Notes: generated by a model not told the origin, from the sequence alone. DNA of 63,611 nt, filler included, from Rhizaria sp. SCN 62-66 (GCA_001724265.1; 7 parts of 7 records of this genome joined end to end with filler, not necessarily neighbours in it), one strand, 5' to 3'. Counted from the first letter of the whole stretch, positions 9,821 to 54,385 are shown. A program made the numbers and translations.

Positions 9821-9920
9821 NNNNNNNNNNNNNNNNNNNNNNNNNNNNNNNNNNNNNNNNNNNNTTAATTAATTAANNNNNNNNNNNNNNNNNNNNNNNN
9901 NNNNNNNNNNNNNNNNNNNN
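9821..9920. other. Artificial contig linker N44-TTAATTAATTAA-N44; identical linkers at 19676-19775, 30703-30802, 39095-39194, 46941-47040 and 54286-54385
   Basis: Six identical 100-nt spacers carrying a six-frame stop 12-mer. Confidence 0.98.
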
Positions 9921-18435: not shown

Positions 18436-19675
18436 TTATTTATGTATTTTTGTGTCTGTAACTTTCATTCTTCGGCAATGGAACACCTCCGGGGTAAATC
18501 GTGACCATGATGGTGCCACAGAGTCTTCAACCGAGTTACTGCCTGAACGAAGCACGCCATATATTAATAGAGCAACGAACGTAGCCTCCCTCGCAACTGC
18601 GTCGCGTTGCGAGTTTCCAGCGCGGCTGTGGCGCAGCGCAGCGCGCAGCAGGGGATCGAAGCCTGCCACGGCGGAGTATGACACGAAAGCCCCGTACATG
18701 CATAGCGAGGACACCGCAAAGCACAAAGACAGATATGTCTCGTCAACCACCCCCAGTTTCTGTGCAAAAGCAAGCAAAATGGTGAGTGCGGCAACTTTCG
18801 TCTGGATTGTAAGTAGTGTTGACCGAGAAGCGATTTGTACAATGCGAAACAGTGACAACGTCAGCGTCTTCCGAGGGCAAGTCAAGCAGCATTCGTGCCG
18901 CAACAGCCCGGCCGTCATCGTCTTCACGGGACTCAAACAGCACGTTGTACAGCACCCACGACGTTTCGGCCGCAACAGACCACAAGTTGGATTTCGTAAC
19001 GGCGTTGCATAGCGGTGTGGGTAGCGGAATGAGCGTCTGCAGCATGTGTGACTCGAGCACGCGCGACACCATCGTTGGCCCCTCGGTCAACTAGTTTGAG
19101 AACGTCCACAACAACTCCTTTATCCCAGCAATATCAGTAGGTGCAAGAGAGACAGCAAGCCGCTGCGGGTACTCCAGCGCGGGCGCCGTAAACACGCGCG
19201 CGGGCGTGCCGCCTTCGAGCGCGGCGACGTTGCCGACGAAGCGCAGCGCGGCGACGTTGCCGACGAAGCGCAGCGCTGGCGGATGGTTCGTCTGCCTCCC
19301 GTGCAGCTGTGCAAGCATCAGCAAAAAATGTCGTTACCATGAGCAAAGACGTACTCAAACTTTGCTCCATTACTGTCCTCGCGGAATACATAGCTAATCG
19401 ACCACGGCGTGTCAGTAAGAGCGTCGGACAAGTTAGGAAGTGAGACAAATGTACGGAGTATAAAGGAGCTGGGGTAAGATCGGCATCGTAAGACTAAACG
19501 GCAGCGGTGGCTTAACGCGGAGAAAGTTGCTCAACGTTCAACTAAGAATCTTGTGAGCGGCGACGCGAGCCTGGACAATGCCTCCGTACACGTCCGTCAT
19601 AGAGCGGAACAAGTGTGCAAAGACACCGCGACTTAACGGCAGCACCGTTATCACCGGCCATGTTGCCCAGCGCCC
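18436..19675 (-). pseudogene. Degenerate paralog of the importin-alpha-like ARM gene at 55203-56678
   Basis: Colinear peptides ALGNMAGD, DVYGG, SNFLRVKPPLPF, ALRFVGNVA, MVSRVL, TKSNLWSVAAE. Lesions: frameshifting deletion near 19630, TGA at a Trp position (19538-19540), 27-nt tandem duplication (19218-19271) and further frame changes. Confidence 0.75.
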
Positions 19676-20700
19676 NNNNNNNNNNNNNNNNNNNNNNNNN
19701 NNNNNNNNNNNNNNNNNNNTTAATTAATTAANNNNNNNNNNNNNNNNNNNNNNNNNNNNNNNNNNNNNNNNNNNNATGTTTATATGTAAGGATACCAAGG
19801 AATATGCTCAATTATGCTGTATATCGAAGACTGTATTGAAGGGAAATAAAAATTAAGTTTGTACTTTCCAAGAGCAAAGGGTGCTTACAATCGTCTTTGC
19901 GGAACAGGGCATCGTGATCGCAGTCACAATCGAGTCAAGAGTCACTATGTTCAGAGCTCAACATTTTTGAAATTTGTCGTTTAGCGCGCAAGATTGAGCG
20001 CGAATAGTGCCGCACATGAAAGTCATTCATCCAAGTTTAGCACGGACGCGCACAAGGTGTGTACGTAGGTTCTGAGCGTGTCTTTCCGCAGCAACAGGAG
20101 GACGAGTCGGCAGCGCGCGCGCGCCGCCCACAGCATACATATCATCTATAGATGCCCATGGCAGCGAGAAATCTGCGTGGCAACAGTAGTAATGACGCTG
20201 GTAGTCATGGTTAGACCACGGTCTCCAAGACTAGCCAGGTAGGTTGGATCGGGCGTGAACTCCGAGCGACTCGCGAACACGTCTATTCTGACACCCTCGT
20301 TCATAAAACCACAATGTGATTACTCATAACATAGACATTGTACATTCGTATCTTTTTTCCAATTTAAAATTCCCGCTAAATATGCCTTCTATAGCGATGA
20401 ATCTTGTGGTTCAGGTGACCTTCTTGGAGTGGTATTGCTTGTTCCTCCGTTGGGCTAAACTTACTCTTCAATCCCTGCTTAAAGGACGTTCATGAAAAAC
20501 AACAACGATTCAGGCATTTAGACCGTATCCATATTACTATAATTATTGCTCAAATTCTTGTAACCTCTTTTATCACTCGCTATTGCTACTTAGCTCCTTC
20601 AACCCACTCATTCGGCCCACCAAGGTCAACCACGCTCGACAACACAACCAGCGCTTTACCACAAGCCCCGCTTGCGTGTGCACGCTTGCCAGCGGCCACA

Positions 20701-22426
20701 ATGAGTGACGACGAGTCGACCACGACAGTGGCGTACTTCTTCGCGAACGCCTTCAACGATAACGAGGACCTCTCCGACGGCAGCACTCACGTTGAGCAGT
20801 CCCGCGAAGACAAAGACGGCCGCGTGTCGGACTTGCTCAACGAGGACCGCGACTACAGCGAGACCTTCCAACTTCTCCGTAGCTCCGGACGCAGTATCTC
20901 CTATTTCATGCGCCCCGCGACGCTGGAGAACCTGCGCATCGTGAGCACCCCGTCGAACCCCGAATCGAGCAACGTCTCCGTGGTCCACATCTCGTGCCAC
21001 GCCACGCACGATGTGCTCGAACTGGAACAGAGCACGAGCATGACCTGCGACCGCGTTACGCGCCCGCGACTCCGCGACGCGCTCAGCGGCGATGGCGCCA
21101 TCGCCAGCGCCATGGAAAATCGCGCGCTGGCCAATGGGCAGGCGCCGCCTGCGTCGCGTAAGGGGTGCGTGCCGTACAAGCTCGCCGTGCTGCTCGTGTG
21201 CCACGGCGCCGCGTTCGCGCAGACGTTCCTGGACGCCGGCGCCGAGGTTGTGGTGACGGTGCACCAGGACTACGAGATCAACGATAAGGTTGCGGTCAAC
21301 TTTGCGACGAGTTTCTACGGCTATCTCATCAAAAACGGCATTTCCGTGCGCGCCGCCTTCAACAAGGCCCAGGGCGCTCTGCCGAAGTCCGAGGGCAATA
21401 AATTTGTGCTTTTGGAGTGCAAGGTTAATCACGCGGCCTCGCTGCACCTGTTCAACAGGATCTCGGCTAAGGAGCCCCCCGTGTCGCTCGACGCGCCGAT
21501 CGTGCAGTCCACGTCGCGCCCGCGCCTCATCGGCCGCGACACGGACATGAAGCTCATCACCAGTGAGCTTCACTCGGCCGGGCAGAACGGCGCGACGACA
21601 AACCAGGTTATGGTGTTGACTGGCGGCGCGGGCGTCGGCAAGGCCACGCTGGTGTAGTATCTCGCGCGCCGACTTGAGCTGCGCCGCACATACTGGCCCG
21701 TCGTCGTGCTCGACACGAAGGAGATCATCCAGGCGCTGAGCAACGCGCAGCTGGGCGCCAAGGAGCTCACGCCCGCGGTCGTCAACGCGACACTGCTGCA
21801 GTGCTTCCGGCGCTCGCTGTGCCGCGCGCTGGACATGCAGAGCGCGGCGGAAAACGCCCCCGCGATGCAGCGGAGCATGGAGGACATGTTCAAGATGCAA
21901 GGCTTCCTGCGCTCGCTGATTGAGGCGCAGCCATCGTTCCAGCAGACGCACGTCAACGTGACGCGGTATCCCACGGCGCCGTGCCTCGTGGTCATGCCCA
22001 AGGTGGACAGCATCCTGGTCCAGAGCAAGATGCTGCAGGACACGGTGCTGGCGTGGATCGACTCGTGTCGCCGCAACATCCCGGGCATGTGCTTCATCGT
22101 GACGTGCGACGACCAGCACTACGAGGCCGCCGAGGCCGACTGGAACCGCATTGCAGCACGCGTGTACCACCTGGTTCCGCTGGGCGCAGCGTCGATCCGA
22201 ATCATCATCAACTCCACCATCGCGTCGCAGCCGCTGCGCTTCACCTTCCAAGAGTGGTACAGGGAGCTGGGTGCGCGCGCTGATGCCAAGATCGCCCAGC
22301 TCAATGGCTCCGCCAAGGTCGCGCTCGACATCGCCAACAAGATCTCCCGTCTCAACTCGCACACCGTGCAGGCCTTCGACAAGATGTGGGAGGAAACCTT
22401 CGGCAAACTGCCCCTGGTCGGCGACG

Positions 22427-22463
<37 letters not shown>

Positions 22464-23559
22464 CGGCGGCAGTGGCGGTGACGGCAACAACGGCGGTCTA
22501 GGCCCCAACGGCGGCGGCGGCGGCGGCGGCGTGCCGTCTGCGCACGCGCGCGACTTCAGCGGCGCCCCGTCGACGGGCTCCACCGACGGCAGCACCAACG
22601 GCGCGGGCGAGACCTCGGCGGCCCACCACGCCGCCGTGTCGTATAACAACACCATGGTCGGCAACCGGGGCGCCGCTGCGGACGGCGCCGCGATCGAGGG
22701 CCACTACACCGTGCAGCCCGCGGATATCGCAGCGCAACAGGCGCAGGCGCAGGCGCAGGCCGAGGCTGACGCTCAGGCCGCTGCCGCTGCCGCTGCACAG
22801 GCCTCTTCTGGTGCTGGCGTCGGTGTGGGCGTGCGCAGCGCTGGCGAGCTGTTGGAGCAGCTATCGCGCGACTACGGCCAGTTCCAGGCGGTGTTGGAGA
22901 AGTGCGCCGCGGACGCGATGCCGTGGCAAGACTTCGCAGGCTACCTCAGCAACTGGTTCGTGTACTTCACTGGCGCCGCGCGACCGCTGGACCAGCTCGA
23001 CCTGGAGACGCTGCGCGAGCGGCTTTTTGGCGCGGCGGGCGGCGCCGGCAGCGTCGCCGTGTCTGCGATGGGGCCCGCCGTGCTGGAGGCGTGCAACACG
23101 CTGTTTTTCCAGTTGTTCCACACGGTGGTGCTGCTCAACGACCGCGTGCGCGAGCCGGGCGGCGTGGCGCTGTGGGACGACGGGCTCGTCACGGGCGTGC
23201 GCTCGCGCGGGTTCGTCGAGCAGTGCTTCCACGCCTGGCTCAACACGCCGCAGTGCGCCGCCGTGGGCGTGATGCGCGTCACCGTCTCCGGCGAGGAGGT
23301 CGGCATCGCCGTCGCGGGGTGGGAATCGACGCCGTTGGCCGTCGCAGCCCCGGAGCCGAACTCCGTCCCCGTTGCGCCGGGCATCCAGCACGTGCTGCTG
23401 CAGACGAGCTTCCTGGTCGAGCAGAACGCCGTACCAGTGCTCAGTCTGGTGACGGCCAATGTTGGTGTGCTCAGTCTGCTGACGCTGCGGGACGGCACGC
23501 CGCAGGCTCTGCCCATCACAACGCCGGAGTACCTACTTCAGCAGCAGCAGCAGCAGTAA
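20701..23559 (+). CDS. CHAT (caspase-like) domain + STAND/NB-ARC-like P-loop NTPase + STAT-type linker/SH2; 952 aa reading through TAG 21655-21657
   Basis: CHAT: VVHISCHA...LELE and LAVLLVCHG...INDKVAVNFATSFYGYL...SVRAAF. NTPase: LIGRDTDM and GGAGVGKATLV*YLARRL. C-terminal MPWQDF...RPLDQLDL...LWDDGLVTG...VMR...IQHVLL follows the STAT linker-SH2 pattern. Ends in TAA. Confidence 0.8.
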
Positions 23560-24247
23560 CAGCAGCAACAGTAATAACACTAAAGCGAGAGAAGCATTCT
23601 CGTTATCAATAAGAACGGAAACAAAAATAGCTTTATCGATCAGTGACGAGTCAGCAAAACATTTTTTTACGTCGACTGAAGCTTGAATAGGACTGAGTCT
23701 AGTAAAAGAGAGTGTGATCCTCAGAAGACTATAGCGACGGTGCGGCACACCACAAGTGAACACAACGATACCGTTTTTAACACGAAAGAAGTGATTTCGC
23801 TTCTGAGCAACTTTGCTGGCAGACTGAAGAGGACGAAGTGAGGTCCAATGCCATGCTGAATGACTACATAGAAACGCATAGAAATCGCCGATATGATCGG
23901 CAAAAACAAGACATAGAAAACCAAATGAACCATAGATCAGTAAAATACGACAAATTTATCCTGTACTATCTGTTTATAACGTTTTCTACTAGATAAATGA
24001 TTCTGACCACAAACGCTTTCTGTTCCTCACTATCCGCTGACTTCCGCCCCGCCGCTTGTCATTACGCGGACGTTCAGGAAAATGATAGTTTGGTACCATA
24101 ACCTCCGTCAAATCATCACTACGTTTTGGTATATTGTAAATACACGGTTTTCTGACTGTTTATATTTCCTAACACTTGTTCGTGCGACCTATCTCTCTTT
24201 TTTTATGACACAGCGAAGGACTTCGTCCCTCTCCATCATATTTGTCG

Positions 24248-27200
24248 ATGTCAGCTTATTACGAACCAACGCTAGATAATCTCGTCAATGAGTTCTCCGG
24301 AGCTTTTAGTCGAGATTTGGTATCCGAAACCTTTATATCTATGAATAGGAATGTCGCCGCCGCCTTTGCTTCTCTCTGTGAATTCTGTGGACATGCTCCT
24401 GACTACGAAGCATTCCGGAGCCGTTCTGCGGCCGCAGCTGCTGCCAATCAACCGCAGCGCAGCCAACATCCACCGGCAGCGCATAACCCCGCGAAACATG
24501 GGTTTAATTTTGACTCGAACGCCCAGGCCTACGTCCCGCAGCACTTACAGCACAATGTCCCCGCCACGAACAACTATTTTAACAGTCAGCCTCAGAATTC
24601 GCCCTACGAATCCAAAAGCCCTCCCGCACACACGAACGTCTCTAATCCCCCGCCAACCGGCTACTTTGCAGCCCACAACATAAATGGCTACTCGGGCTAC
24701 GGTGCAAATCCTGCTGCCAACAGCGCATTTAGTGGATACGGGGTTGCGAACCCTGCTCCGAACAACGGGTATCCTGGCTACGCATCAGTGAATAACGGCT
24801 ACCCGGGCTCCGGTGGTGCCGCCGGCGCCGCCACGAATACTTTTAACGCTCCCTACCACGATCTGCCAAAACAGCACGCCAACCATGGCAATCCCCCCCT
24901 GCTTGCGAGACCAGCCGCCTCGACCGCCGCCGCCCCCACTTGCGCCGCCGCCCCCGCCCCCGCCGTGGACGAGCTCGCGCTAATGCTCGTCGCCTCGTGC
25001 TACCCGCTTGTGTCCCCCACGACGCTTGCGCCCGCGCTGTCCGCGGCCCGCGGCGCGGTCCCCGTCGCGCTGAGCGCGCTGCGGACCGTGCTGGCAACGG
25101 CGTACTCGTTCGACCCCGCCGCCGCGGACGCCGACCTAAGGCTCGCCGCGCTGACCGACGCAGAGGTGCGCGACGCCATGTACATGGTCGCCAACTACGC
25201 GCGCGCCGCGGCCGACCCCGCCGCCGTCACAGTCGCTGATGCCAGCAACAACACCGCCAACGCGAACTCCGGCGGGGGCGGATCCGACAACGACGATGGC
25301 AACGACGGCAACGGTTTCGTCACCAACAACGCCCCCGCTCTCATGGCCAACAACGCAAGTTGCACCAGCAGCAGCGGCAGTAAGGGTAGCAGCGGCGGCG
25401 ATGCCGCCACGCTCGGGTTCCTCACTCCCGCGCCCGTTACCGTGACCGCGTCTGGCCGCTTCGCCGAGCCGGCACAGTGGAGCTCGCAGGACCGCGCCGA
25501 CCACGAGCTTGACGCGCGGCTGAACCGCGAAGATCAAGCCGCGTTCGAGGCCGCAACCCAGAAGCTCATCGCGGAGATGATTGCGGATGACGTGGCCGCC
25601 AGTCCGCACCTCGCCCACGACATCGCCGGCGGCTACGGCAACGGCAACGGCAATAGTAGTAGTCTCAGCAACTCAGGCCTCATTGTCAGCGCGAACGGCG
25701 TTGTGCAGTTGGCACGGACCTTCTCTAGCGGCAACAGCAACAGCGGCGGCAACAACAAGAGCGGAAAGCGCAACGATAACGCCGCCGCCGCCAACGATGA
25801 CGACGACGCTCCGTTCGACGACGGCTACGGCGGCTACGCCAGCGCCGCCGCCGCGGCCCCCCCAGCACCGCGCCGCAAGACGATCGTGACGCTGCGGTTC
25901 AGCGATGGCCCGCGCCACCTGCCGCAGCCTACGTGTCCGTACACGCGCCTGCCGACGCTGGCCGCCACCAACAACAACAACGGCGGCGGTGGCAGCGGCG
26001 GCGGCGACGGCGACGACCTGATCGCGTCCGACGTCGAGGACGCTGTGCGCGCGCACGCACGCCGCTCGCGCCGCAGCAAGAGCGGGGCCGCGGGCGGCGT
26101 CAACGCGAGCTTCGACGACGGTAACGCCGTGCCGTGCTTCCGCGAGCCGCACCACGAGTGCTTCGGCAGCGGCATGTCGCAGCTCTGCGCCGACGGCACG
26201 CTGGCCCGTGCCTACGCCCTGCTCCCGCGGCTGCCGTCGCGCGGCGGGCTGACGGAACCCGCGGAGCCGAAGCTGACCGAGATCCTCGACCGGCTGGCCG
26301 CGCTGTACCCCTTCATCGGCGTCCGCGCCGAGCTGCGCGATCTCTTCGCCGCGGCGTGCTTCAGCACCGTCAACACCGACTTCCTCATCGGCGAGCTCTA
26401 CGGGCCCGAGTGCGCGCTGGCCAACCGGCGCGACGCGGCCGCGGCCGGCGACGGCAAGAAGCAACGCAAGCACGCGCGCGGCGTCGTCAAGGAGTTTGCG
26501 CCCGCGCCTGTGATTGCCTCGCTCTCGGCGGCGCAGGCGGCGTACCGCGCCAAGCACGCCGCGCTGCTGCGGCGCGAACCCGAGTGGGAGGCCGAGCTGC
26601 GCGACACGCCCTGCGGCTACAAGCGCAGCCGCTGGGAGGACGAGCTCCGCCGCCGCTACGCGCTATGGCTAAACGCGTATCTGCCCGCGTCCTACAACGA
26701 CGCGCTCCGTGCCGGCGGCGGCCTCCGCACGCCCCCGCGCCGCAACAGCGCCAGCACCGCTGCCGCCACTGGCGCTGGCGCTGGTGCTGGGATGGGCGAT
26801 GACGACCAGGACGAGCAGCAGCAGCAGCAGCACGACCAGGAGCGGCGCGTGACGTACGTCGGCGGCGGCATGAACGGCCCCGCCGCCGGCGGTCTTGGCC
26901 CGCGGCACTACGGCGCGTCCGTCCGCGAGCGCTACACGGGCGCCGAGGACGAGGAGGGCGGTCCGGGCTCGGGCGGCGCGATGACTGCGCTCGAGCAGCT
27001 GCAGCGGCACAGCGCGAACCTGAGCCGGCTGGCGCACTACGTCGACGAGCACCCGCTCTCGATGCTGTCCGCGCCGGGGGAGCTCGAGCACTGGGAGATC
27101 GCCGGCGCGTTCACCAACTTCCCCGTTCTCGAGACGCTGCTGGCGTCGCGGCTGCGCGTGCGCGTGCTGCCCGACACCGCACCCGCGCCCGCGGCGTATG

Positions 27201-27715
27201 CTGACTGGACGCCCGAGTTCGTGGTGCGTCACAAAGACTTCTTGGAGCAGACGGCCGGCATGGCGATGCACCAAATGCAGCAGCTGACCGAGGCAGAGCG
27301 GCGCCGCGTCGACATCACGCGCAAGAAGATCTACTTCCTCGTCGTCATGCGCGCCGTGCTCAGCCTGCTGCACTCGGATTACTCCGGCGCGCAGCAAGAC
27401 GGCAAGTCCTTCGACGACACCGGAAAGATCGACCTCCACGGCTTCTCCGTGCCGCACGCCATGAGCGCCGTGCACTTTTTCCTTAACCGCTTCGCGAAGC
27501 TGCACGCTATGAGGCAAAAGGTGCCGCGTGAAGTGACATTCCTCGTCGGGCGCGGCTCGCACTCGTTCAACGGGGCGCGGCTACCGCATGCTGTGCGCGA
27601 GCGCGTGGTCTAGATGGGCATCACGTCCGCCGCAAAGTCCTCCGGCAACGCCTTTGTGGTTGTGCCCATGAACGAGCTTGTCAGGGCCGCAAAGAGCTGG
27701 AAGCGAGAACAGTAA
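24248..27715 (+). CDS. CUE-like + PAM2 + Smr-domain protein (Cue2/N4BP2/CID7-like endonuclease); reads through TAG 27611-27613 to TAA 27713-27715
   Basis: N-terminal CUE-like helices and PAM2-like FNFDSNAQAYVP. The Smr domain IDLHGFSV...VGRGSHS...LPHAVRERVV*MG...SGNAFVV has its final strand after the TAG. Confidence 0.85.
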
Positions 27716-30398: not shown

Positions 30399-30802
30399 GT
30401 TGTGAGAGAGATGAGCTATTCTGTGTCAGTGCTCAGTGCGAAAGAAGGCCAAGACTCGAGTGTCTGCTTGTTTGTCTGTTTTCTTGGAAGGATTTACGCC
30501 GCAATTCCCTTGTATAGTTGCAAAAGAAGCTGTGTGGCAAAAGTGAAGACAAGTGTTAAACATGAATGAGCAGTCAAAGTATGAAACAACATACTCTATT
30601 GTAATACATGTGATAAAAGCGCTGGATCTGAAATAAGATTGAGGAAATCGTTTGTGGTCAGACTGGGACACAGCAAAGTCCAAGTGGGTTGAAGACTAGG
30701 AGNNNNNNNNNNNNNNNNNNNNNNNNNNNNNNNNNNNNNNNNNNNNTTAATTAATTAANNNNNNNNNNNNNNNNNNNNNNNNNNNNNNNNNNNNNNNNNN
30801 NN

Positions 30803-33800
30803 TGGCCGCGGCCGCGGCCGCGGCCGCGGCCGCCGCGTCCTGCGCCGCGGCCTCCGTCTCGAGGTTGAGCCGCTCCCAGGCCAGGGCCTCGTTGAACGCG
30901 TGGGGCAGGAAGAGGGCGGCGGAGGACGTCACTGCCTTGTCGAGCAGCGTCGTCAGCAGCGACGACGACGAGGATGAAGCCAGCGGCGGGACAGGACTGC
31001 CGTCGGCAGCAGCGCTCGCCCCACCCGCAGCTCCGGCTGAGGAAGCTGGCGAATCAGCTGAGTTCACAGCAGCAGCAGCGGAGGACGAGTCGCTAGCTGC
31101 AGCAGCGGTCAGGCCAGCGCCAGCGGTGGTGGCAGGGGACTCACCTGCCGCGCTCGCAGTCGCGCTCGCATCAGCCGCCGCAGCCGTCTTGCCAGTGTCG
31201 CCGCCAGTCGCCGCCGCGCCCGCGCCCGCGCCCGCGCCCAAGGGCGGCGCAGTCACGAACCCTGTCGCCGAGGACACAGCAGTGGCATTGGCCGCTTTGG
31301 CGACGGCGGCGAGCGCCGTGGTGATGACCTTGTGCAGCGTGAGGCGCCACACGCTGACCTGCTCGCCCAGGTCGCTGCCAACGCTCGTGCCCGTGTGCAG
31401 ACTGGCGAACTTGCCGCCCGTGGCGCCCCACACGCCGCCGCCGCTGGCGCCCGCAGAGACGACGGCGATGCGCGACGCCTTGGACACCGACTGCCGCCAG
31501 TGCTCGGCGCGCGCGCGCTCCTCACTGCCCTTGTCACTGCCGCCGGCGACACTGCCAGTGCCAGCGCCGGCACCGTTAGCGGCGGCGGCAGCGGCGTTGG
31601 CAGCAGCAGTGGTCGTGAGCGCGGCGGCGGCGGCGACGGCGGCGGCGGCGGTCTCCGCGGCCGCCACGGTCGCGGCCGAGGCGGGCGGCGGGAAGAGCGG
31701 CAGCAGCGCGGGGCGCGACCAGGCCTTGTTCTCGCCGAACAGCCACGCGGGCGCCGCGGTGCGCGTGAGCGACCCCACGCCATGCGACGGGCGCGGCAGC
31801 TCCGCCAGCGCCTCCGCGGCCGCGGCGGCCACCTCGGCGGCCTCAGGTGACGCCGGCGGGGCCAGCGTCTTGAGCGCGCGCGGCGGCAGCGGCACGTAAG
31901 ACGGCGGCGTGGACGACGGCGAGGGCGACGGGATGCGCGAGTACGTCGTGTCGGACAGCGCGGCGGCCGCGAAGCCGGCGCGGCCGATCATGTCGCGCGC
32001 CTGCAGCATCGCCTGCGCGCGCGCGCTGTAGGTGATCACGGCCACGGGCCCGCTGCTGCCGCTGCCGTCGCCCGCGCTCACGCCCGCGCCCGCGCTGGCG
32101 GATAGCGCGACGGTCGAGCTGGAGACTGCGCTGGCGCTGCCGTCGGCGCCAGCGCCAGCGGCCTGCGCGCGCGGCTCGGCCGTGGCGGCGCCGGCGCAGG
32201 GCACCTCGTGCGCCGCGCCCCAGGGCTGGTACAGCGCGTTGAGGAACGGCGCTAGCGCGCCCGAGCCGGCCGTGAGCGGCAGCGCGGCGAGCCCGCCGGT
32301 GCCGTGGAGCTCGATGTGGAGGCGCGCGACGACGACGGCGGCGGGCAGCGGCGACGCCGACTGGCACAACGACTGCAGGTATGCAGGGCCCTGCAGGTGC
32401 GGCGGCGCGGGTACCAAGGCGGCGGCGCGCGCGGCTGCGGTGAGGTGCGAGGGCGGGGACGAGGACGGCACGGAGGGCGGCGGCGGGCGGCGCGGGGACG
32501 GCGTCGCCGGGTCCCACTGCTGCGGAGACACCACCAGCGGCGTTGACGCTGACGCGAACACCACTGAGTGAGGATCGCGCAAGCAAGGAAAAACACAACA
32601 AAGAAACATGAGATTTAAAAGATAGAAATAGAACTAAGTTATATTCAGAGTGATTTTTTGTTTTTGTGCCGAAAATAGAATCGCTTGTAGCGTACCTGCG
32701 CCGAAGTTAGGAAGCGCCTTGTTGTCTTTGACGAGCTTTGAGTAGACGAGCCAGGGCCAGGAGCTTGCGTCAGTCGCCCCGCCCGCGGGCTCGGCGGCCG
32801 CGCCGGGCCACAGCGGCACCACGGGGGGTGCGCCCGCGGCCGCGGCGGCGGGTTCGAACGCCCAGGGACCGGGACACGCGCCGCCGCTGTCGCTGCCATC
32901 CTTGCCTGTGCCCGAGGGCAGCCAGCGCGGCCAGCGCAGCGCGCCCGCGGCGTGAGCGTAGCGCGCGGAGCCCAGCAGACTGAGCAGCGAGCCGTTGGCG
33001 TGGCGCGGGTACTTGTCGTCCGTGTTCCACGCCAGCCCGCGCGCGCCCCCGGCACCGGCCCCTGTGCCAGCGGCGGCTTGTCCGGCGGCGGCGGCGGCGG
33101 GGTCGGTCCAGCGGCCCTGGAGCTCTGCGACGGTGAGCGGGTGGCGCGCCAGGTCCAGCACCGCGCGCACGCGCGGGTGCGCGGCGCGCGCGGCCTCTGC
33201 GCCCAGCGTCGCCGACAGTGATGCCAGCGCGGGGTACGGCGCGCCCGCGGCGACAGAGGCCGAGGCGGCAGCGGCGGCGGCGGCGCAGGCCGCGGCGGAG
33301 GCAGCGGTCGCTGCGTTGGCGCTGTATGGCGGCGTCTCGGCAACGATGCGCGACGAAAAGCCGAACGCGGCGGCGGCGGCGGCGGCGGCGGTGGCAGCGG
33401 CGGCGGCGGAGGACTTGCTGAGGGCGTCGTAGCCGTGGCCGTCGCCGTGGCCGTGGCCGTCGCCGTGGCCGTCGCCGCCGTCGTCGCCGTGGCCGTGGCC
33501 GTCGACGTGGGAGCGGCTGCGGCGCGCGAGGGCAATCGCGCTCACGATGGCGGCCGCGGCGTCGGCGGGCGCGACCGACACGGTGCCGTTGACCGACACG
33601 TACCACAGCTCGTTCGCCTTGCTCGCCTTTGCGGCCTTGCGACTGGCCGTCGCCTCCGCCGTCGCCGTGGTGTCCGCCGCGGGAGTCGCCGCAGAGTCGG
33701 TCTCGGCGTCGGGCGCGGGTGCGGGCGCGTTGAGCAGCGAGCGCAGCGCCGGGCTGGAGGCAAGCACGCGCACGCGGCTCCACGTTGCGGCGCCGGCCCC

Positions 33801-34742
33801 GCCCCCGGCCCCGGCGGCCTCGGCGGCCTCGGCGGCGCGCTGCACCGAGGCGCTGAAGGACGAAAAGAAGGACGACGACGCGGCCGCTGCGGCCGCCGCG
33901 CTGGCCGCCGCCGCGGTGGCCGAGGAGGAGGACACGGCGCCCGCAACGCCGCCGCGCGTGACGAGCACGCTGGCCATGGTGAGCGGCAGGAAGAAGTCCG
34001 CGCCGTGGGCGTAGGCTCGAGCGGCCAGCGCGGCGTGGTGCGCGTGGATGCCCTCGGACGGGCCGCGGAAGCAGTGCCAGTCCACGGCCACCGACGGCGA
34101 CGCCACGGCCAGCGCGGGCGCCGTCTCCAGCTCGACCCACGCGCCCTGCTGCGGCTGCTGCGCGCCGTTACTGTGGCTGCTGTCAATGTCATCGTTGCCG
34201 TTGCCGTTGCTGGCGGGCGCGACGACGGAGATGACGACGCGCTTGCGGCGCCACTCGTTGAGCACGCGGCGCAGCAGCGCAGCAAAGGCCTTGCGGCGCG
34301 TCTCCAGGTCGAAAAGCGGGTCCTCTTGCTCAAAACCCAGGTAGAGTGTGTAGCTGAAGCGCGCGTCAAGCGAGGCAAGCAGCGCGGGCAGCGACGTCGT
34401 GAGGAACGGGTGCGAGGCCGTCGGCGCGGACGAGGGAAACCCGGCAGACGTAAGCGGGATCAACAGTGCGAAGTTGAGCCGGGGCGCGAAGCGGAGCGGC
34501 GCTGAAGAGTTTGCGCTGTTGCTAAGCACGTTGCTCGGGAGCGCAGACCGAGATGACAACAGAAACCGCTGTTGTTGCTGTTGTTGTTGCTGGTCTTTGC
34601 CCGCAGCAGCCCCAGTCGCACTGCTGCTGCCGCCGGCGCCGCTGCCAGAGTTGTTGCGGAGCAGCAGCGCGGCGTCGTAGGCGGCGCGACCCACCCAGAC
34701 GTCTGCGAGCTGCGGTGGCACCTGCGCCCACCTGCCCGCCCG

Positions 34743-34781
<39 letters not shown>

Positions 34782-35552
34782 AACGCCAGAAGCACCAGCA
34801 GCAGCAGCGGCAGCGGCGGCAGAGGGCGAGTGATCGAACGCGTAGGGCGAGTCGTGCACCGGGGCGAGGTGGCGCGGCGCGTGGGCCTTGCTGGCACCGG
34901 CAGCGCCGCGCAGCAGCAGCGCGGCGAGCGCGGGCAGGCGGCGCAGTTGCGAGAGCAGCGCCTCGCCGGGCAAAACGGCGGCCACGGCAGAGGCCTTGGC
35001 GGGGCGGATGTGTTTGGGCGGCGTGATGGCGAGGTGGTGCACTGCCGGGGAGAGTGCCGTCGGCAGCCGCGGGTTGCCGAGGTCGAGCCAGACGCCAGAG
35101 ATGCTGGCGTCGTAGACGAAGAGCAGTGCCGCAATCAGCAGCGTAAAGATGACGATGATGGGCAGCGACGTCGCGCGCTGTAGCACGTGGCGAAACACGG
35201 CCTCGAGCGGGGACGCAGGCGGGCGCGTAGCGAAGCCGAAGATGCCGCTGCCGTCGCCACCGCCGCCGATGCTGCCGCCGCCGTTGACGCTGCCGCGGGA
35301 GGAAATCGAGCCGGAGCGGCGCAGGTACGCGGAACGCGTGTAACCGTCGTCGTCGCCGTCAATGTCAGCGTCAGCGGGAAGAGCGGACGCGTATGAAGCG
35401 CGGGCGTCGTAGGCGTGGAAAGCGTCATCGCCGCCACCGTTGGTTGCATCGTCGTTGCCAGCTCCATCCCTGCTGCCGTTAGAACGAGACGGGCTGGTAG
35501 GAAACATCCGGCGTCGTGGAGAATCTGAATCGAGCCCAAACCTGGATAACAT
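30803..35552 (-). CDS. Type II membrane glycosyltransferase-like protein with large Ala/Gly insertions; 2 exons (35552-32696, 32563-gap), 3'-truncated
   Basis: Phase-1 intron 32695-32564 (GTACGC...CTCAG) joins the 972- and 620-aa ORFs. N-terminal TM (PIIVIFTLLIAALLFVY); GT-A-like blocks FALLIPLTS, YTLYLGFEQEDPLFD, LAARAYAHGADFF, LPNFGAV. Confidence 0.65.
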
Positions 35553-36269
35553 CGTGGGGTTTAGACTCTAAGGGGGCGCTGTGGAGACGGGCTCTAGACG
35601 CGAGCGCTCGTTTGCTTCGTCAGGTGTTGGTCTGAGTTGGACGAAAGTGTCTCTGTTGAAAGGATTTTCAAGGGTTTGAAGAAGTGTCTAAGAATTATAT
35701 TATAGAAACACATCGAGAATAATCATAAACACAACTTTATCCACTATATCCGGCTGTTATACGACGTTGCACTCATTCTTAGACGAGTGCTCTCGGCACT
35801 TGCTATGCGTTTGTGGTCCACCCCCCAGACTGTTGGCTGGGGGGACGAGAGGTCAGGATGATAAGGTCATCTATAGATTGACCGTTAACTCGACATTTGT
35901 TGATAGCTTTGAGTTTTAACTCACTATTTGGATATCATACCTAAAGGCGACACTTCATCTGCTGTCATAAAGACCGGTACCCGGAGAGGTGAGCTTCCAT
36001 CCACAAAAGGACCGACCCCTTGTTTGTTCGTTGCACATTACGATGGATTTCACGACATTAAGAATGTCCAATGCGAATCGCTTCTCCAAATGTTATACGA
36101 GCAAAATGATTTTGTGCTAATCCCCCAGTTGACTCTTGGCGTGCTCAATTCAATCTCACCGTATTTGCTGCATCACCTATAACCCTCGCATCACTGAAGA
36201 TATCCAAACAAGTCTCCTGGAAGACTTATCTACTCCGTCTCGGTTGTTCTACGCAGACCTCTGTCGGTC

Positions 36270-39094
36270 ATGTCACGCTCTGCTGTTGAATCCAAGGGCT
36301 CTGCGGGTTTTCGCTGTGTGTTGAGCCTTCCGCAGGCCTCTGCACTCCAGCACTCTCTCCTTCGGGCGCACTTACTCGCTCCGGATCTTCTCGCGCCCGG
36401 CGACTGCGCCGCCACGGCCGCGCAAGACCCAGCGTTTGCGGCCACTCTCGACTACATTTAGTCCCGGCCCTCACAGTCCTCGTCGCTTTCGTTCTCAGCT
36501 CGTGCCAGCGCGCATGTCAACAGCGACACCAGCTTCGGCGCCGACTCCGACGCCGACGCCGGCAAGGTCGACGACGGCTTGGCCGTGTTCCGCAAGTAGC
36601 GCGTGGTGACGGTGGGCAGCAGGCGCGATACCATGATGTCCATTATTACTTTCTTCGCCGACACCCGACGCGACGGCGCGAAGGAAGCTCTGCGGCGCGC
36701 CGTCGACGCCGCCGCCAAGCACGCCGCCGCCAAGCACGCCGCCGCCGTTGCGGCCGATGTTCGGTCCAATCATGATGTGTCCTCGTCGTCGGGCACAGTG
36801 ACGCTGGCTACCGGGACCATCAATTTTGCGCTCGGCGACGACAAAGCCAGGGACAAGGAGTAGGCGATGAAGCGTGTGACGCGGACTAAGGCGGCTGCAG
36901 CCGAGGCCGCCGAGGCCGCCGCTTCGTGTGCCAAAGAAATCGCCGCGGCCGCGGACGCCATTGCGGCGTACTCCCCTTTTTACCACGCACTGCCTCGCAA
37001 CAACTCAAACAACAACAACAACAACGACAGCAGCAACAACAGCAGCAACAACAACAGCAGCGACGGCAACGGCAACGGCAACAGTGCAAGCGGCGCGAAC
37101 GCGGCCGGGATCAGCGGTATCGACGTCGTGAGCTCTCTCTTGCTCACGATGATGGCCTCGCCGCAGTCGCTCACGCGCGCTCAACGCTGCGCAGTGGTCG
37201 TGCGCGGCGGCCGCGTCTATGTCACGGGCGCGCACGCCCGCAGTCTGCTCTGCGGTGCGCGCGCCGGTCACAGCTCCAGCTCCAGCTCCAGCTCCAGCTC
37301 TAGCTCTGGCTCCAGCTCTAGCTCTGGCTCTAACTCTAACCTGGGCTCTGACGCCTGTGCCGGTGCCGGCGCGAGCGCGAGCGCGGCTGAGCAGTGCGCG
37401 GCCGCCGAGAGCCACGTGGCGAGTCTGCTGCAGGATACGATCACCTGCAACTGGGGCTTGGCCAGCGCCAACGACGAGTCTGAATATGACAACTGCGCCC
37501 TCAGCAGCGACTGCGAACCAGACTGCGACGGTGGCGCTGGCGCTGCCGCTGCCAGGGCCCGCGCCTGTGCGAGCATGAACGCCGCGGACAGCGAGGGCGA
37601 GGGCGAGGGCGTGGCCGATGGTCAGCGGGGGCGAGAAGGCGATGCCGCGAGCCCAGACGCTGTTGCGACTGTCGCCGCCGTCGCTGCGCAGGCTCAGCCT
37701 GGCACGCGTGCCGCCGACGGCGCTGGACGCGCGGTATGCGTCGAGGCGCCCGACTTCACCGTATCTTAGTGGCTCACCCTGGTGCTCGCCCAGCAGTCGC
37801 AGGCGCAACCACAAGAGGAAATGCAGAGTTTACTCGCATCGACAAAGTTTACTCTGACTGCGACAGCGCCCTTTGCTCCCAGCTCAGCTTTTGCGGTCTC
37901 GCACGCCTCCGTCTTCGCTCTGGACCCGGTCGCTGCTCTCAGCCCCGTCCCTCTGCAGCCGCTGGCCCCGTCGCGGGCCGGTCCCGCGCATCTGACTGTG
38001 AACACCGGCGGCGACGACTCAACCCACGCCATGTCCGTGCCCGACTTCAGGGCCCTGCTCTAGCGCTCGGTCTTGATGGAGATGCCGGCGACGCAGACGC
38101 CGCTGGCCGTGGCGCGCTCGCCCTCGATGGCAGCCTCGCGCCACCTCAACGTCAACTCGAGGTTCTTTCCCCACGGGCCGTAGGGCTAGCCGCCGTCGCC
38201 CCGGTGCCAATCCTGCAGCCGCGAGGCCAATGTCGTCAGCGGCCCGATGGACGTTCTGATGTTGGCGGAGAAGTCCGACCTCAGCCCGAGGTTCGACCTC
38301 GGCCAGACTAGCCACGACAGCGCGGCCGCGCTCAGGACTTCACGGCACACCGCCGACGCACTGCTCGCGGTTACTGCCCGGCTGTGTCACCGCTTTCAGG
38401 CGGCCAAGGCGGCCCGAGAGGCAACGGCCAAGACTGCGCGCGACGCGGCGCGGGCGTCTGTCAAGTTCGTGGGCTGTCTCACACCGACCGTGAGGGACGT
38501 CAACGAGGTGCTGCAGTCGCTGCTCTCAGCCACCGCGGAGCTCGTGCCCCCCGCGCTCGCCTCCGCCTCGGCTGCGGCGTCAACGTCTCACGCTGGTGTG
38601 GATGCGAGCACGAGAGACTGCGCCAGTGCAAGCGCGCTCTTGCGCGCGCTAGAGCTGCAGAAAGGTTCGGACAAGATAATGGCGCGAGCGCTGTCAGACG
38701 AGCTCGCCCGCAGCGACTTGTCGTGGTTGCAGCTGCAGGCGCACCTGCCCGAGAGGGCCCTGGACGTGGCCTCTGCCGACGCCGACGCCGACGCTGGTCC
38801 CGATGTTGGCCTGGACGCGCCGAACCACAAGGAAGGCGTCATCAAGAAGCACATTGAGGTGCCTGCGAGTCTATTCGTGCAGCAAGCGCTTGAGAGCAAG
38901 AGCAAGAGCAAGAGCGAGAGCGAGAGTGCGGGCGCCGACGTGCCTTAGGGCGGGGCCCCTCCTGACTGCGAGCGCGTCAGCAGCGTCGGCCACGAGCAGC
39001 AGGGCGCCGGCGTGCGCAAGGACGAGGGTAAGGGCGAAGGCGAAGGCGAGGGCGAGGGCGAGGGCGAGGGCGAGGGCGAGGGCGAGGGCGAGGG
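36270..39094 (+). CDS. Low-complexity hypothetical protein of at least 940 codons, one frame with 8 internal TAG codons; runs into the gap, 5' end uncertain
   Basis: Track ORFs 36270, 36603, 36867, 37782 and 38247 share one frame. They are separated only by TAG (36459, 36597, 36861, 37767, 38061, 38181, 38187, 38946), with no TAA or TGA. Confidence 0.75.
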
Positions 39095-39194
39095 NNNNNN
39101 NNNNNNNNNNNNNNNNNNNNNNNNNNNNNNNNNNNNNNTTAATTAATTAANNNNNNNNNNNNNNNNNNNNNNNNNNNNNNNNNNNNNNNNNNNN

Positions 39195-44927: not shown

Positions 44928-45916
44928 ACTGATGGTGGTTGAACTGGGTTGGCAGAGGAGAAGCGAGCAGAGTTGGGTGAGAAATTTGTGAGAGAGGGGA
45001 GATTGTGCAAGGTATATCATGCAAACGACTAAGATAAGTCAAGTGAGGAGTTATCCAACTATACTACATCACATAGGCGCAGCTTATACATCTTGGATGC
45101 TTTGTTCTGAGACGGAGCAGAGGTGCGTTCCACTCTGATCGTAATGAAGATTCACTCTGTGACCTAGCCGGTGACATTACAGACTCGCAGAGAATTGGGA
45201 TGCGCGAGTGTAGTACCAGTAAAATAAATAAATATCTAAAACGTGTTTGTAAGTCATAGCATTGTGTTATTTCTGTGTTTTTCGATGCTTGTCGGTCGTA
45301 TTTTGAAATCTTAAGCAGGGACGAAAACGAAGGAAACCTGCAAGCGACCGTGAGCAGCCTCGCCTCTCGAAACCATCGCTGCCACAAGCACTTTTTTCTC
45401 TCGTCTCACGGTCAAAATTTGGCAACGGCTCGACGACTTGGCTGGATCGAGCAGCTCTGCGTCGCAGCCCAGGAGGGAAACGCGGACCACGGCGCGCTTC
45501 GCGTTTCTGCATTCTCTATAGCATCGGTTGATTTTCTTATTTATGATCAAGGTGTCACCAAATTTTTAGAGTTTGTTTGCACTTTTTTTCTTGTTGCCTG
45601 ACGTCGTATTTGCTTTCAAAACCACATTTTTTTTGTGTTCATTTGCCGGTTCAACACTCTTCGCCCCCACCTTGGCCCTCACGCTTCCCCCACTCCTGCA
45701 CTCTCCCACCCTTGCCCCACGCTCTGTACACCAGACAACCACAACACCTGTCGCTTTTGGCACCCAGTTTTCTGTGTCTCCGGCGTCGCTCTACAGCTCT
45801 CACCAGCAGTCGCGTCGTCGTGTCCTTGAAAGACCAGCTCACGCAGCCCCCGTCTCGGCTCCCCTTCGGACTCTCGGCTTGTACAGTCCGCAAGCCCACA
45901 CGCAGCAACAGCAACC

Positions 45917-46795
45917 ATGGGAGGCACAAGCACTAGCGGCAGCGGCATCTCCACGGGCCCGCACTCCGTCTCCGTGTCCATTGCCAACACTGCCTCGCAC
46001 TCTCACGCCCACTCGTCGTCGCACTCCGTCTCGGCCGCAGCCGCCCCTGCCGCGCCGTCTGTGCTGTCCAAGATCGCCGCCGTGTGCGCGCCGCAGCTCT
46101 ACGTCTTTATCCTGCTCGAGACCATCTCGGTGCTTACCATTGCCTCGGCCAAGGGCGCCGATGGCCGGCCTGTGTACAACTCGGCGGGCGTAGTGCTCAT
46201 CGCGGAGCTCTTCAAGCTCGGCATCTCAGTCTACGGCGCGTGGGAGGACGACCCCTGGCTGGCGTCCTTCTTCGGCGGCATCAAGTGGCGCAACTTCGCC
46301 ATGTACTCCCTGCCGGCCTTTCTCTACGCCGTGAACAACAACATCTACCTTAAGGTGCTCACAGTCATCCACCCCAGCATCTTCCAGCTCTTCATGAATC
46401 TCCGCGTCGTCTGGACTGGCATCCTCTTCCGCTTCACGCTCGGCCGCACCGTGACGCCCAAGCAGTGGGCCGCCATGCTGCTGCTCTTCACCGGTTGCGC
46501 GCTCACCGTCTACTTTCCCGCGCGCACCCCGACCCCGTCGGGCAGTTCGGCTGGCATCCTACCCCCCGCCGGCGCCGAGTCGCCAGTTGACACTGACGGG
46601 TCCTGGTGGACGACACTCACCACGCTCGTGGTTGTCTTCGCGGGGCTCTTTCTCACGCTCGCCTACACTGTCATCTCCACGGCCGCCAGTGTTATCGGTG
46701 AGGTCCTTCTCAAGTCGACCGACTCGCTCCACGTTGCCAACATCCAGCTATACTTCTTCGGCGTCGTCTTTAACCTCATCGGCATCTTCCTCCAG
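45917..46795 (+). CDS. SLC35A-family nucleotide-sugar transporter, exon 1 (rest beyond the gap)
   Basis: VVLIAELFKL, YSLPAFLYAVNNN, PSIFQLFMNLRVVWTG, QW, NIQLYFFG; splice donor CAG|GTACGA at 46796. Confidence 0.9.
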
Positions 46796-46865
46796 GTACG
46801 AGAGAGCGTATCGCCTCGGCGTAACACGCGATGGAAATCCTTTCATGATCATCTAGTGTAGTTTG

Positions 46866-46868
<3 letters not shown>

Positions 46869-46930
<62 letters not shown>

Positions 46931-46940
46931 TGTGTGTGTG
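46869..46940 (+). repeat. (TG)n microsatellite at the contig end
   Basis: Directly visible. Confidence 0.97.
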
Positions 46941-47979
46941 NNNNNNNNNNNNNNNNNNNNNNNNNNNNNNNNNNNNNNNNNNNNTTAATTAATTAANNNN
47001 NNNNNNNNNNNNNNNNNNNNNNNNNNNNNNNNNNNNNNNNTTTCATTATTAATTACAATTGTTTTATTGAGATCGGCATTTTTAAATCTGAAAATACAAA
47101 ATCAACCACTATCTCTAGAATTTTCGCTCACTATCTGTACAATCGACTGTACTACTGTTACTAGTAGTACGTACTAGTACTAGTACTAGTATGTTGAGAG
47201 GGGACACACGATTGATGTTTGTTGAAGGTGAAAACAGCACTGATCTTAGTAAGACCTCTGCAAGTGGAGAAAAGCGGGGGAGGCACTAGAAATGGCGGTC
47301 ATATCATCCGCCATTGCGCTAGGTACTTTAGTACTAGTACTTTTTGTACAAGGCTCATAACCTGTTAGAGTTAGAGGATCCAAGTCCAGGTGGAAAAGGT
47401 CGATTTGTATTGAGTTATTATAATACAAAAAGTATCATGAATTGCACCAAAGTGGTAACTACCAATTCCATCGGTTTGCTCACAGTCACTTTCCTACTAC
47501 TAGTACGTAGTAACTAACATACTCACCAGGTCACCATGGTCAAGGCGTTTGTGGTGGGAAAGGAAACGAACGTCAACCTTGCTGGGATCATAGGAATTTG
47601 TGTGTAAGGTCATAATGGCAGCATAGAAAGAAAGAGAGCATTGTTATGGTAAATTCATGCTTTTAACAGTATTTGTTTAAATTTGAATATCGGTTGTATG
47701 CGATCTATGAGTGATAGCTTGTTGTTGACCTACCACTTGCGCATGGTGCAGAAACAGGAGGTGTCGAAACGCCGATCGATATTCTCCGTCTTTGTCTTTT
47801 TCATTCCCGCTAATTATAATGTGGTTGCAACTTAACAGTTCTAAATATTAAGCAACTGATTGTTTACACTTGAAAGACACATCTTCTTACCTATCTCGCC
47901 TGTGCCCTTTTTAACCCCCTTGCTCTGGCTTTCGCCTGCTCACAACCCTCGGTTTCTAGTGCTGTGACCGTCACAAACG

Positions 47980-51658: not shown

Positions 51659-53644
51659 ATGCCCACAGGCATGACGAACAAGACGACGTATCGCAGCCTT
51701 CCCAAGGTGCGGCTTTTCTCATCACTATTCGTCCTCATCGGAGTTGCGCTAAGCTTGCCCGTTTGTAAAGCTGCTGCAGAGTAGTGGTACGGCGTCCTTG
51801 GTGCCGGAACAACAACCACACGTCTGCTGCTACACTTGGACCTCACGATCTCTCCTCCCAATGCCACCATCACAAACCTAGACTTCTCCGCCTCCGAGGT
51901 CGCCACTGCCGTTACCTACAATCCCTCTGCAACACCTGCACCTACGCTTTCTTTTAAGCTCGTTTCCTCCTCGTTTTCAGGCGCATTCCCGTCGTCTTCG
52001 CGGCTTGACGGCACTTTGCGTGCCCAGGCCTCGCAACTGCAATGGCCGCTGGAACTGAGCACCGAGGAAAAGTACGTGCCGCCCGCCATCCCTCTCACGG
52101 AGAGCGTATTTCACCAGCGGTTTACTACATCGCGCTTGGTTGCCCTGGGAGCCGGCTGGGCACTCACGGACAAGAAGCCCTCGAGTCTGACTCGTCAGAG
52201 TGAAAGTACGAGTGTTGACTCTTCAGACTCGAGTGTAGCTTCTAGTTCGAGCTCGAGTTCGATTAACCGTGGCTTGCTACATAAGCTCAAGTCTACATCT
52301 GCCCAGCAGATTGCCGCAACACAGCAGCAGACATCTTTTCACGACACTGCATCCAACACTGGTGCTCAACAAAACACTCTGCGCAACTCTCTGCGGAGCT
52401 CGCTGCGCAGCGACATCTTTGTGATCGGTCAACGCGCCGCGGACCCGGCCTCCCGGCCCGTGACTCCTGCGGACCGCTGGCACCTTGGCTCTGTCACTAA
52501 GTCGATCACAGCGACCCTGGCGGCCGTCGTGGTTGAGATGGGTAAACTGCACTGGAACAGCACTGTCGGTGAGATCCTCACACACTTCACAATGCACCCG
52601 GCTTATCGCACCGCGACGGTACTTCAGTTGTTGTCGCACCGGTCAGGGCTGCCGGCCAATATCCCTATGGAAGATCTTAACACTTTCTCGGGGGACCCGT
52701 TGACAACGGCTCAGACACTTAAGGAGCGCGCGCGCATGGCCGCCATCGCGCTCGCCATGGAGCCTGTCGGCCCGGCGGATACTTTCACGGGATACAGTAA
52801 CAATGGCTTTGTCGTTGCCGCGCATATGATCGAAATTGTGCTGAACGACTCATGGGAGGTACGATCTAGTACTACGTACATAAATGCATAATCACATTTC
52901 TTCATGTATATCAACAACTGTTTATCGTAAAAAGTTCACTTTCATATCTAGTTGTGTTAAATTTATTACATTTTGAAGTATCGCTTTATTAAACTGACGT
53001 AAACGTTCAAATGTTTTAATTTTGCTCATCTTTTATTATCATTGCATCTCGTGCCTTTCGTTGTTGTTCTACAGAACCTTATTATGAAGCACATTGCGGC
53101 CCCGCTGGGTTTGCTAAGCATCGGCTTTGGCCCCGCGGGCATTCCTGTGCCGCCTCCTCTTGGCGAGCCTGTCACGGCTGAGAACGCAAAGCAGCCCGTC
53201 GGCCACATTCGCGCCGACTCTGTGCTCACGCCGCTCTATCCGAACTGGGGCGCGATGCCGGACAACCCCGTGGCACTCGGCCCTGCTGGCCGCGCGCACA
53301 TAGACCTGGACGACCTGCTGACGTACCTCATGGCCCACGCCTCGCAGTCCCCTGCGCTGCTACCGCCGAAGCAGTGGGCTGTGCTTCACTCGCCCGTCGG
53401 CGACGGCGAGTTTGCGCTCGGCTGGGCCGTGTCGCCTAGTGGACTGCTCTTACACAGTGGCTCTAATACCCTCAATTTCGCTGAGGTCGCACTTGACCTC
53501 AAGCGCGGAGCTGTTGCGGCAGTCGTGAGCAACGACGCCTCAAGTCAAGGCACCATTGATGACACGATCGCGTCGGCGCTGCAAGCCGCATACGCCGCGC
53601 GCGCGCTCGCGGACAACGCTGCCATTGCTGCAGGAAGCAACTAA
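51659..53644 (+). CDS. Secreted beta-lactamase-related (class C-like) serine hydrolase, 589 aa; 2 exons (51659-52858, 53075-53644); TAG at 51782
   Basis: Signal peptide LFSSLFVLIGVALSLPVCKA, then E*WYGVL...RLLLHL. Catalytic motifs GSVTKS (SxxK), LLSHRSGL, YSN, HSGSN. Intron GTACGA...TACAG; ends in TAA. Confidence 0.88.
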
Positions 53645-54285: not shown

Positions 54286-54385
54286 NNNNNNNNNNNNNNN
54301 NNNNNNNNNNNNNNNNNNNNNNNNNNNNNTTAATTAATTAANNNNNNNNNNNNNNNNNNNNNNNNNNNNNNNNNNNNNNNNNNNN

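Follow-up and report, generated by a model that had tools for sequence, protein, structure and literature searches.

Proteins of the STAND and NLR type normally sense their ligands through repeat domains. In fungi and bacteria, the CHAT protease domain is known as an N-terminal effector of NLR-like STAND proteins (described in excerpts of PMC9815663 and PMC10197012), and a nuclear code that reads UAG as leucine was reported earlier for one rhizarian (excerpts of PMC5304391). Here we describe a plus-strand gene at 20701..23559 of a 63,611-nt stretch of DNA (Rhizaria sp. SCN 62-66, GCA_001724265.1; the whole stretch is called the window below), whose 952-codon frame joins a CHAT domain and a STAND NTPase to a C-terminal tail resembling the linker and SH2 domains of STATs, and which holds one in-frame TAG. 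A preliminary description of this DNA, made from the sequence alone, had proposed this layout. We found the layout, with an unmistakable SH2 domain, in 19 other proteins whose profile the tail of the present protein matches: judged by domain content, the CHAT-STAND-STAT-type-SH2 architecture exists and recurs, and the gene is a real but degenerate member of the family. The family is apparently undescribed, as no paper combining CHAT, SH2 and NACHT/STAND was found in full-text literature searches (subscription journals and supplements lay outside their scope), and the one eLife paper that they returned names SH2, in its excerpted text, only beside TRADD-N domains. The explanation we favour, and consider somewhat probable, is a single gene for a 952-residue NLR-like protein consisting of CHAT, STAND, a disordered linker and a divergent STAT-type linker/SH2-like tail, with TAG translated as a sense codon.

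Domain architecture of the 952-residue frame

The CHAT caspase-fold protease domain covers approximately residues 57-230 (20869..21390, plus strand) and was identified by Pfam, AlphaFold2 and Foldseek. Pfam CHAT (PF12770) matched residues 57-230 at 28.8 bits against a cut-off of 24 (25.3 bits when the whole protein was scanned). His100 (SCHA, nt 20998) and Cys167 (VCHG, nt 21199) fall in the catalytic HG and CH columns of 21 homologues, which bears out the earlier proposal that the dyad is kept. A full-length AlphaFold2 model built on a 20-row alignment gave this domain a predicted local distance difference test score (pLDDT) of 76-93. Its best Foldseek match was the SAVED-CHAT protease 8tl0 (E 7.9e-8), which was also matched by sequence profile (E 7.9e-11). 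As read from its sequence, this is a protease domain with an intact His/Cys dyad.

The CHAT domain is followed by a STAND/AAA_16 P-loop NTPase with a helical arm, at about residues 275-567 (21523..22401, plus strand), recognised by Pfam, alignment and Foldseek. The Pfam AAA_16 match lies above its cut-off (41.4 bits versus 32.6) and spans the TAG, in agreement with the NB-ARC/AAA_16-like module proposed earlier. The NTPase core was modelled at pLDDT 71-86, with Foldseek matches to ORC/Cdc6 and to the plant NLR RPP1 (E 7.2e-6). Next comes a low-complexity linker of Asn, Gly, Ala and Gln at about residues 575-715 (22423..22845, plus strand), recognised by its composition, modelled at pLDDT 25-40 and already noted in the preliminary description as an Asn/Gly linker.

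In 7 of the 50 matches scanned, CHAT and NACHT/AAA_16 are followed by a C-terminal Pfam SH2; a second, profile-based search found SH2 in 8 of 35, seven of them new and one from EukProt. A tail model built from the SH2-bearing relatives recognises 19 of the 107 proteins collected. The family profile of the linker and SH2 matches Dictyostelium STATa 1uur (linker+SH2, residues 268-430) with an E-value of 2.5e-20, and it also matches mammalian STAT5, 6, 2, 3 and 1, all of these ranking above Src-type SH2 domains. When the tail of one relative (P0018) served as the query, that protein alone was returned. Many CHAT-NTPase matches carry TPR or LRR as their C-terminal module. In two relatives (P0050 and P0089), CHAT is fused to a protein kinase domain (Pkinase / PK_Tyr_Ser-Thr) instead of SH2, with P0050 also carrying LRR; these fusions are another tie of CHAT proteases to phospho-signalling.

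The tail itself (residues 716-952; 22846..23556, plus strand) was recognised as a divergent STAT-type linker, SH2-like domain and terminal extension by STAT_linker, hhalign and alignment. When it was compared with the 19-sequence linker+SH2 profile of the family, hhalign gave a score of 30.1 (P 4.8e-4), none of 150 shuffles exceeding 19.9. The match spans 102 columns that begin in the linker and reach the third strand. In the same comparison, hmmsearch gave a score equalled or beaten by 1 of 2000 shuffles. Pfam STAT_linker (PF21354) was sub-threshold at 20.6 bits (E 6e-4, cut-off 27). The alignment is collinear, with Gly856, Ser863, Gly868, Trp874 and His897 in conserved columns without gaps, His897 occupying the family's His column. 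Other residues that we noted are Arg761, in a linker R-P-L motif that extends to R-P-L-x-x-L-D-L-x-T-L and is common to the target and P0079, along with Arg836, Arg859, Thr861 and Tyr944. At low confidence, the model places a helix, three strands and a second helix in succession, as expected of an SH2. Pfam found no STAT coiled-coil or DNA-binding domain in the protein, which is not a STAT. The tail had no match among PDB sequences or among 1.84 billion representative proteins, and a protein atlas placed it near unrelated neighbours at 0.83-0.84, below lead level. We regard it as likely that the tail is a diverged STAT-type linker and SH2.

The in-frame TAG and its probable meaning

The frame is bounded by an ATG at 20701 and a TAA at 23557-23559, with no intron seen and exactly one in-frame stop: a TAG at 21655-21657 (plus strand), which is codon 319 and lies five residues past the P-loop Lys. 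DNA contigs from two other studies (X3, 20562-22412; X4, 20300-22412) show no differences to the window, and a Joint Genome Institute contig (L001) holds the same 34-mer at the TAG site. Shared as it is with contigs of other studies, the TAG is real and not an assembly error.

An exhaustive HMMER search of the 1.84 billion representatives returned 74 proteins. One, a public database entry of 318 amino acids (P0003), is 100% identical to residues 1-318 and ends at the TAG, and no protein for the half downstream of the TAG was found there; most other matches are continuous proteins that take in the region of the CHAT Cys and the P-loop and extend past the position of the TAG. A word-indexed search for homologues of the entire protein gave no match, and phmmer against PDB sequences gave no significant one. 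The 633 codons downstream contain no further stop or frameshift and, with GC at third codon positions (GC3) of 0.89, show the strongest codon bias of the gene. Homologues fill the TAG column mostly with aliphatic residues, Ser or basic residues and never with Gln (L/I/V 11, K/R 7, S 2 and D 1 among the 21 homologues; S 7, L 4, I 3, T 2, V 2 and R 1 in a 19-homologue alignment). A polyA RNA library run (X7) yielded small identical contigs on both halves of the gene, where DNA carry-over is possible.

Other genes in the window are interrupted in the same way. Using a coding signature in which GC3 is highest and GC1 exceeds GC2, we found in-frame TAG, and never TAA or TGA, in at least four coding frames. 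The signature persists past the TAG in four of the seven signature-bearing frames that stop at one, versus none of the eight that end in TAA or TGA. The four that continue are the target, a neighbouring gene with an Smr domain, and 36864-37769 and 38190-38948 (these two being parts of one frame); among the remaining three, one has a TAA two codons on, one has its TAG in an intron and one is ambiguous (45830-46861). The Smr gene (24242-27715, plus strand; 1,150 codons, with a weak C-terminal Smr domain at 16.7-17.3 bits, below cut-off) has its TAG at 27611-27613, identical in contigs X3, X4 and X5, and runs on for 33 codons (GC3 0.79) to a TAA at 27713-27715, after which the DNA is AT-rich; its alignment to 3fau ends just before the TAG and gives no clue to the meaning of the codon. 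The frame at 36198-39094 (plus strand, about 965 codons, reaching the contig end) holds eight in-frame TAGs and no TAA or TGA, with GC3 of 0.78-0.96, and matched no Pfam family.

Because several genes are broken by TAG alone, an organism-wide property accounts for the pattern better than independent nonsense mutations: judging from these frames, TAG is probably a sense codon in this organism, with TAA and TGA terminating. The sole direct hint to its meaning comes from two armadillo-like paralogues on different contigs (18746-19333, minus strand; 55176-56678, plus strand; 48% identity, E 1e-29), in which a TAG in one aligns with a CTG Leu codon in the other. Leucine is our best guess, hinted at by this one paralogue pair. 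Translation of the single TAG of the CHAT-STAND gene would follow from the use of TAG as a sense codon, which we consider very probable in this organism. The preliminary description had seen that the protein is whole only if TAG is read through; we would add that readthrough is probably a property of the genetic code and not of this gene.

Proposed function and competing explanations

By analogy with STAND/NLR proteins and SAVED-CHAT, the tail may serve as a sensor or docking module for a ligand or partner. Its engagement could lead to oligomerisation through the STAND module, and the CHAT domains thus clustered could cleave substrates, so that the protein would work as a switch in cell death, immunity or signalling. 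Where relatives have kept the SH2 Arg and the Walker motifs (P0018 and P0019 are examples with intact motifs), the input would plausibly be a phosphotyrosine ligand or a STAT-like reciprocal contact between SH2 and phosphotyrosine; one may speculate that Tyr944, in the tail of the target, takes part in a contact of this kind. The present copy is more likely to be dead for nucleotide hydrolysis and to lack a canonical phosphotyrosine pocket, acting as a scaffold, a regulator or a differently triggered protease. The phosphotyrosine-triggered switch suggested in the preliminary description is therefore a plausible reading of the family as a whole and a doubtful one of this copy, given the Thr at its SH2 Arg position, the degenerate Walker A and B motifs and the low-confidence model of its tail. 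It is a tentative idea, and one we think on the doubtful side, that diverse microbial eukaryotes possess NLR-like 'death switches' in which a STAT-type SH2 reads phosphotyrosine, a STAND module oligomerises and a CHAT protease executes, which would couple tyrosine kinases without intermediates to cell death by proteolysis or to immunity, with the organism of this copy using a UAG-to-Leu code.

Several observations weigh against the single-gene explanation, beginning with the motifs of the protein itself. Walker A (GGAGVGKA) keeps Lys314 and has Ala315 in place of the Ser/Thr of GxxxxGK[ST]; Walker B departs from hhhhD, with Pro433 (CLVVMP) in a column that holds Asp in at least 90% of rows. 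Both motifs had been called degenerate beforehand, and rightly so: the Walker B Asp and Walker A hydroxyl columns are each at least 90% conserved in the family, with the target as the odd one out, and the GKA variant is common to P0052 and P0059. In the tail, the family's invariant SH2 Arg column is Thr861 in all MAFFT alignments and in hhalign. The preliminary description had seen the phosphotyrosine-binding Arg as kept (VGVMR), a claim that did not survive, as Arg859 lies two residues upstream of Thr861 on the same strand. We take the Arg column to be the betaB5 position. In SH2 domains the betaB5-type Arg makes the key contact to the phosphate, and the few such domains without it bind atypically. 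The three lost motifs and the TAG could also mark early decay.

Recognition of the tail has weak points as well. Pfam SH2 (PF00017) gave no match in residues 701-952, even at E up to 10. The significant match to the 19-row profile came only at the third profile attempt: with 7 and 10 rows, the family profiles had fallen short of significance (P 0.087 and 0.059; 76 and 71 of 2000 shuffles as good, respectively). AlphaFold2 modelled the isolated tail at pLDDT 34.8, a value that carries little weight since the alignment was partly flawed (MAFFT had set target residues 1-108 on the CHAT region); in the full-length model the linker helices had pLDDT 53-77 and the SH2-like part 46-57. No STAT was found among the 48 Foldseek matches listed for the whole model, which were dominated by CHAT and AAA+. 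The structural check suggested in the preliminary description gave confident CHAT and NTPase domains and a tail modelled at low confidence. A quick tree of the CHAT-NTPase region, with long branches (56 rows; 51 of the collected proteins excluded as too short or unmatched), did not put the target within a clade of SH2 bearers: it lies on a long branch with P0026, and this tree does not resolve descent from an SH2 bearer. As to the codon, no RNA contig of run X7 spans the TAG, each half of the gene being covered separately. TAG occurs only 12 times in the 6497 codons of seven genes, with 8 of the 12 in one gene that has no known relatives; no tRNA, and hence no cognate one, was seen in the window; one TAG of the window is intronic; and the frame at 45830-46861 may truly end at its TAG.

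If the tail were not SH2, a helical or mixed domain peculiar to the lineage would resemble the STAT linker by chance or composition, and the protein would be a CHAT-STAND protein with some other sensor. The missing Pfam SH2 call, the lack of a PDB STAT match for the protein alone, the low model confidence and the unrelated protein-atlas neighbours below lead threshold would all fit. We nevertheless think this unlikely in view of the collinear 19-row match (P 4.8e-4) and STAT_linker (E 6e-4), the register of G856, S863, G868, W874 and H897 without gaps, and the true STAT-type SH2 that occupies the same position in 19 relatives.

The codon allows two further explanations. The gene may be a recent pseudogene or truncated gene, in which translation ends at the TAG, leaving a 318-residue CHAT fragment that breaks off within the P-loop domain, and the 633 following codons are in decay. 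The public annotation (P0003) ending at the TAG is in keeping with such decay, as is the loss from this copy of the SH2 Arg and of a key residue in each Walker motif (Ser/Thr in A, Asp in B); NLR-like families turn over quickly. However, those 633 codons are free of other stops and frameshifts at GC3 0.89, other genes of the window are broken by TAG only and never by TAA or TGA, and samples of three studies contain the identical sequence, all of which makes decay quite unlikely. Alternatively, TAG may be mainly a stop with gene-specific or leaky readthrough, so that, as a form of regulation, a short CHAT product would be made along with less frequent full-length protein. TAG is indeed rare, with none or one in five of the seven large frames, and the window shows no cognate tRNA. 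Yet the short product would end five residues past the P-loop Lys, at no domain boundary, a frame with eight TAGs would hardly be passable, and no frame of the window clearly ends at TAG; we hold leaky readthrough to be very unlikely.

If the single-gene explanation and the SH2 at the sensor position are true, phosphotyrosine signalling would be tied directly to a caspase-like effector in protists. Phosphotyrosine signalling is otherwise best known from animals and amoebozoans, and the family would offer a testable route to how it was combined with regulated proteolysis or cell death outside animals. Standard gene calling hides two thirds of the protein, and probably much of the organism's proteome, because it takes TAG as a stop.

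Source of the DNA and comparison with known systems

The window consists of seven contigs, each about 7-11 kb long, with spacers of 44 N, 12 bases and 44 N between them (the N runs lie at 9821-9920, 19676-19775, 30703-30802, 39095-39194, 46941-47040 and 54286-54385); the 12 bases give L-I-N-stop in frame, and features are not readable across the joints. The CHAT-STAND gene lies on the third contig (19776-30702). Base composition is uneven, with GC-rich genes (GC3 0.8-0.9) between AT-richer spacers, and other genes include those for a P-type ATPase, a nucleotide-sugar transporter, and ankyrin and armadillo proteins. Metagenomes that several studies obtained from bioreactors, wastewater and activated sludge also contain DNA of the window, and a scan of metagenome contigs gave an identical 2552-base contig as its sole match. 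This gene content and occurrence point to an uncultured, GC-rich microbial eukaryote of wastewater and bioreactor communities as the source. A giant-virus origin was considered and dropped as unsupported, a scan of viral contigs giving no match. Rfam and ARAGORN found no RNA gene and no tRNA within the window.

Several neighbouring genes have features of their own. The long Ala-rich gene on the minus strand (30803-35567) contains an AT-rich, in-frame GT..AG intron at about 32560-32695 with a TAG that mimics readthrough; this TAG (32634) had been a candidate for a further readthrough case and was rejected on account of the intron. In the nucleotide-sugar transporter gene (45830-46940, plus strand), the TAG is followed by a (GT)n microsatellite and then the contig end, and could be a true stop, part of an intron or an assembly break. 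A split gene of the beta-lactamase family (51785-52891 and 53003-53644, plus strand) matches consecutive profile positions (40-165 and 166-326), with an intron of about 110 bases probably lying between its two pieces. In the shorter of the armadillo-like copies, which may be a fragment, ALRFVGNVAAL occurs twice in tandem.

Nuclear reassignment of UAG alone has precedents, by the excerpted text of Panek et al. 2017 (PMC5304391), in the rhizarian exLh (UAG=Leu) and in Iotanema spirale (UAG=Gln). As in both, TAG alone appears in frame here and TAA is kept as a stop, and as in exLh, one alignment points to Leu; in contrast to both, going by the same excerpts, TGA also ends genes here and TAG is much rarer.

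Among proteins of known structure, SAVED-CHAT (8tl0, type III CRISPR) is the best structural match of the protease domain, and its activated form is a filament by the PDB title ('activated SAVED-CHAT filament'). It differs in being prokaryotic, in having a SAVED sensor and not SH2, and in having no STAND NTPase. Dictyostelium STATa (1uur) shares with the family profile a linker domain directly followed by SH2. Unlike STATs, the target has neither coiled-coil nor DNA-binding domain by Pfam, carries its linker-SH2 unit behind a protease and an NTPase, and has Thr861 for the canonical Arg. Among the closest known systems are also the CHAT-STAND NLR-like proteins, in which, according to the excerpts of PMC9815663 and PMC10197012, an N-terminal CHAT is likewise fused to a NACHT, NB-ARC or AAA_16 NTPase. 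Where those proteins carry TPR, WD40, ANK or LRR, the present one carries a STAT-type linker and SH2, and its Walker motifs are degenerate. CHAT as an NLR effector, the STAT-type SH2 and UAG-only codes are each already known; what appears new, going by the full-text literature searched, is the combination of CHAT, STAND and SH2.

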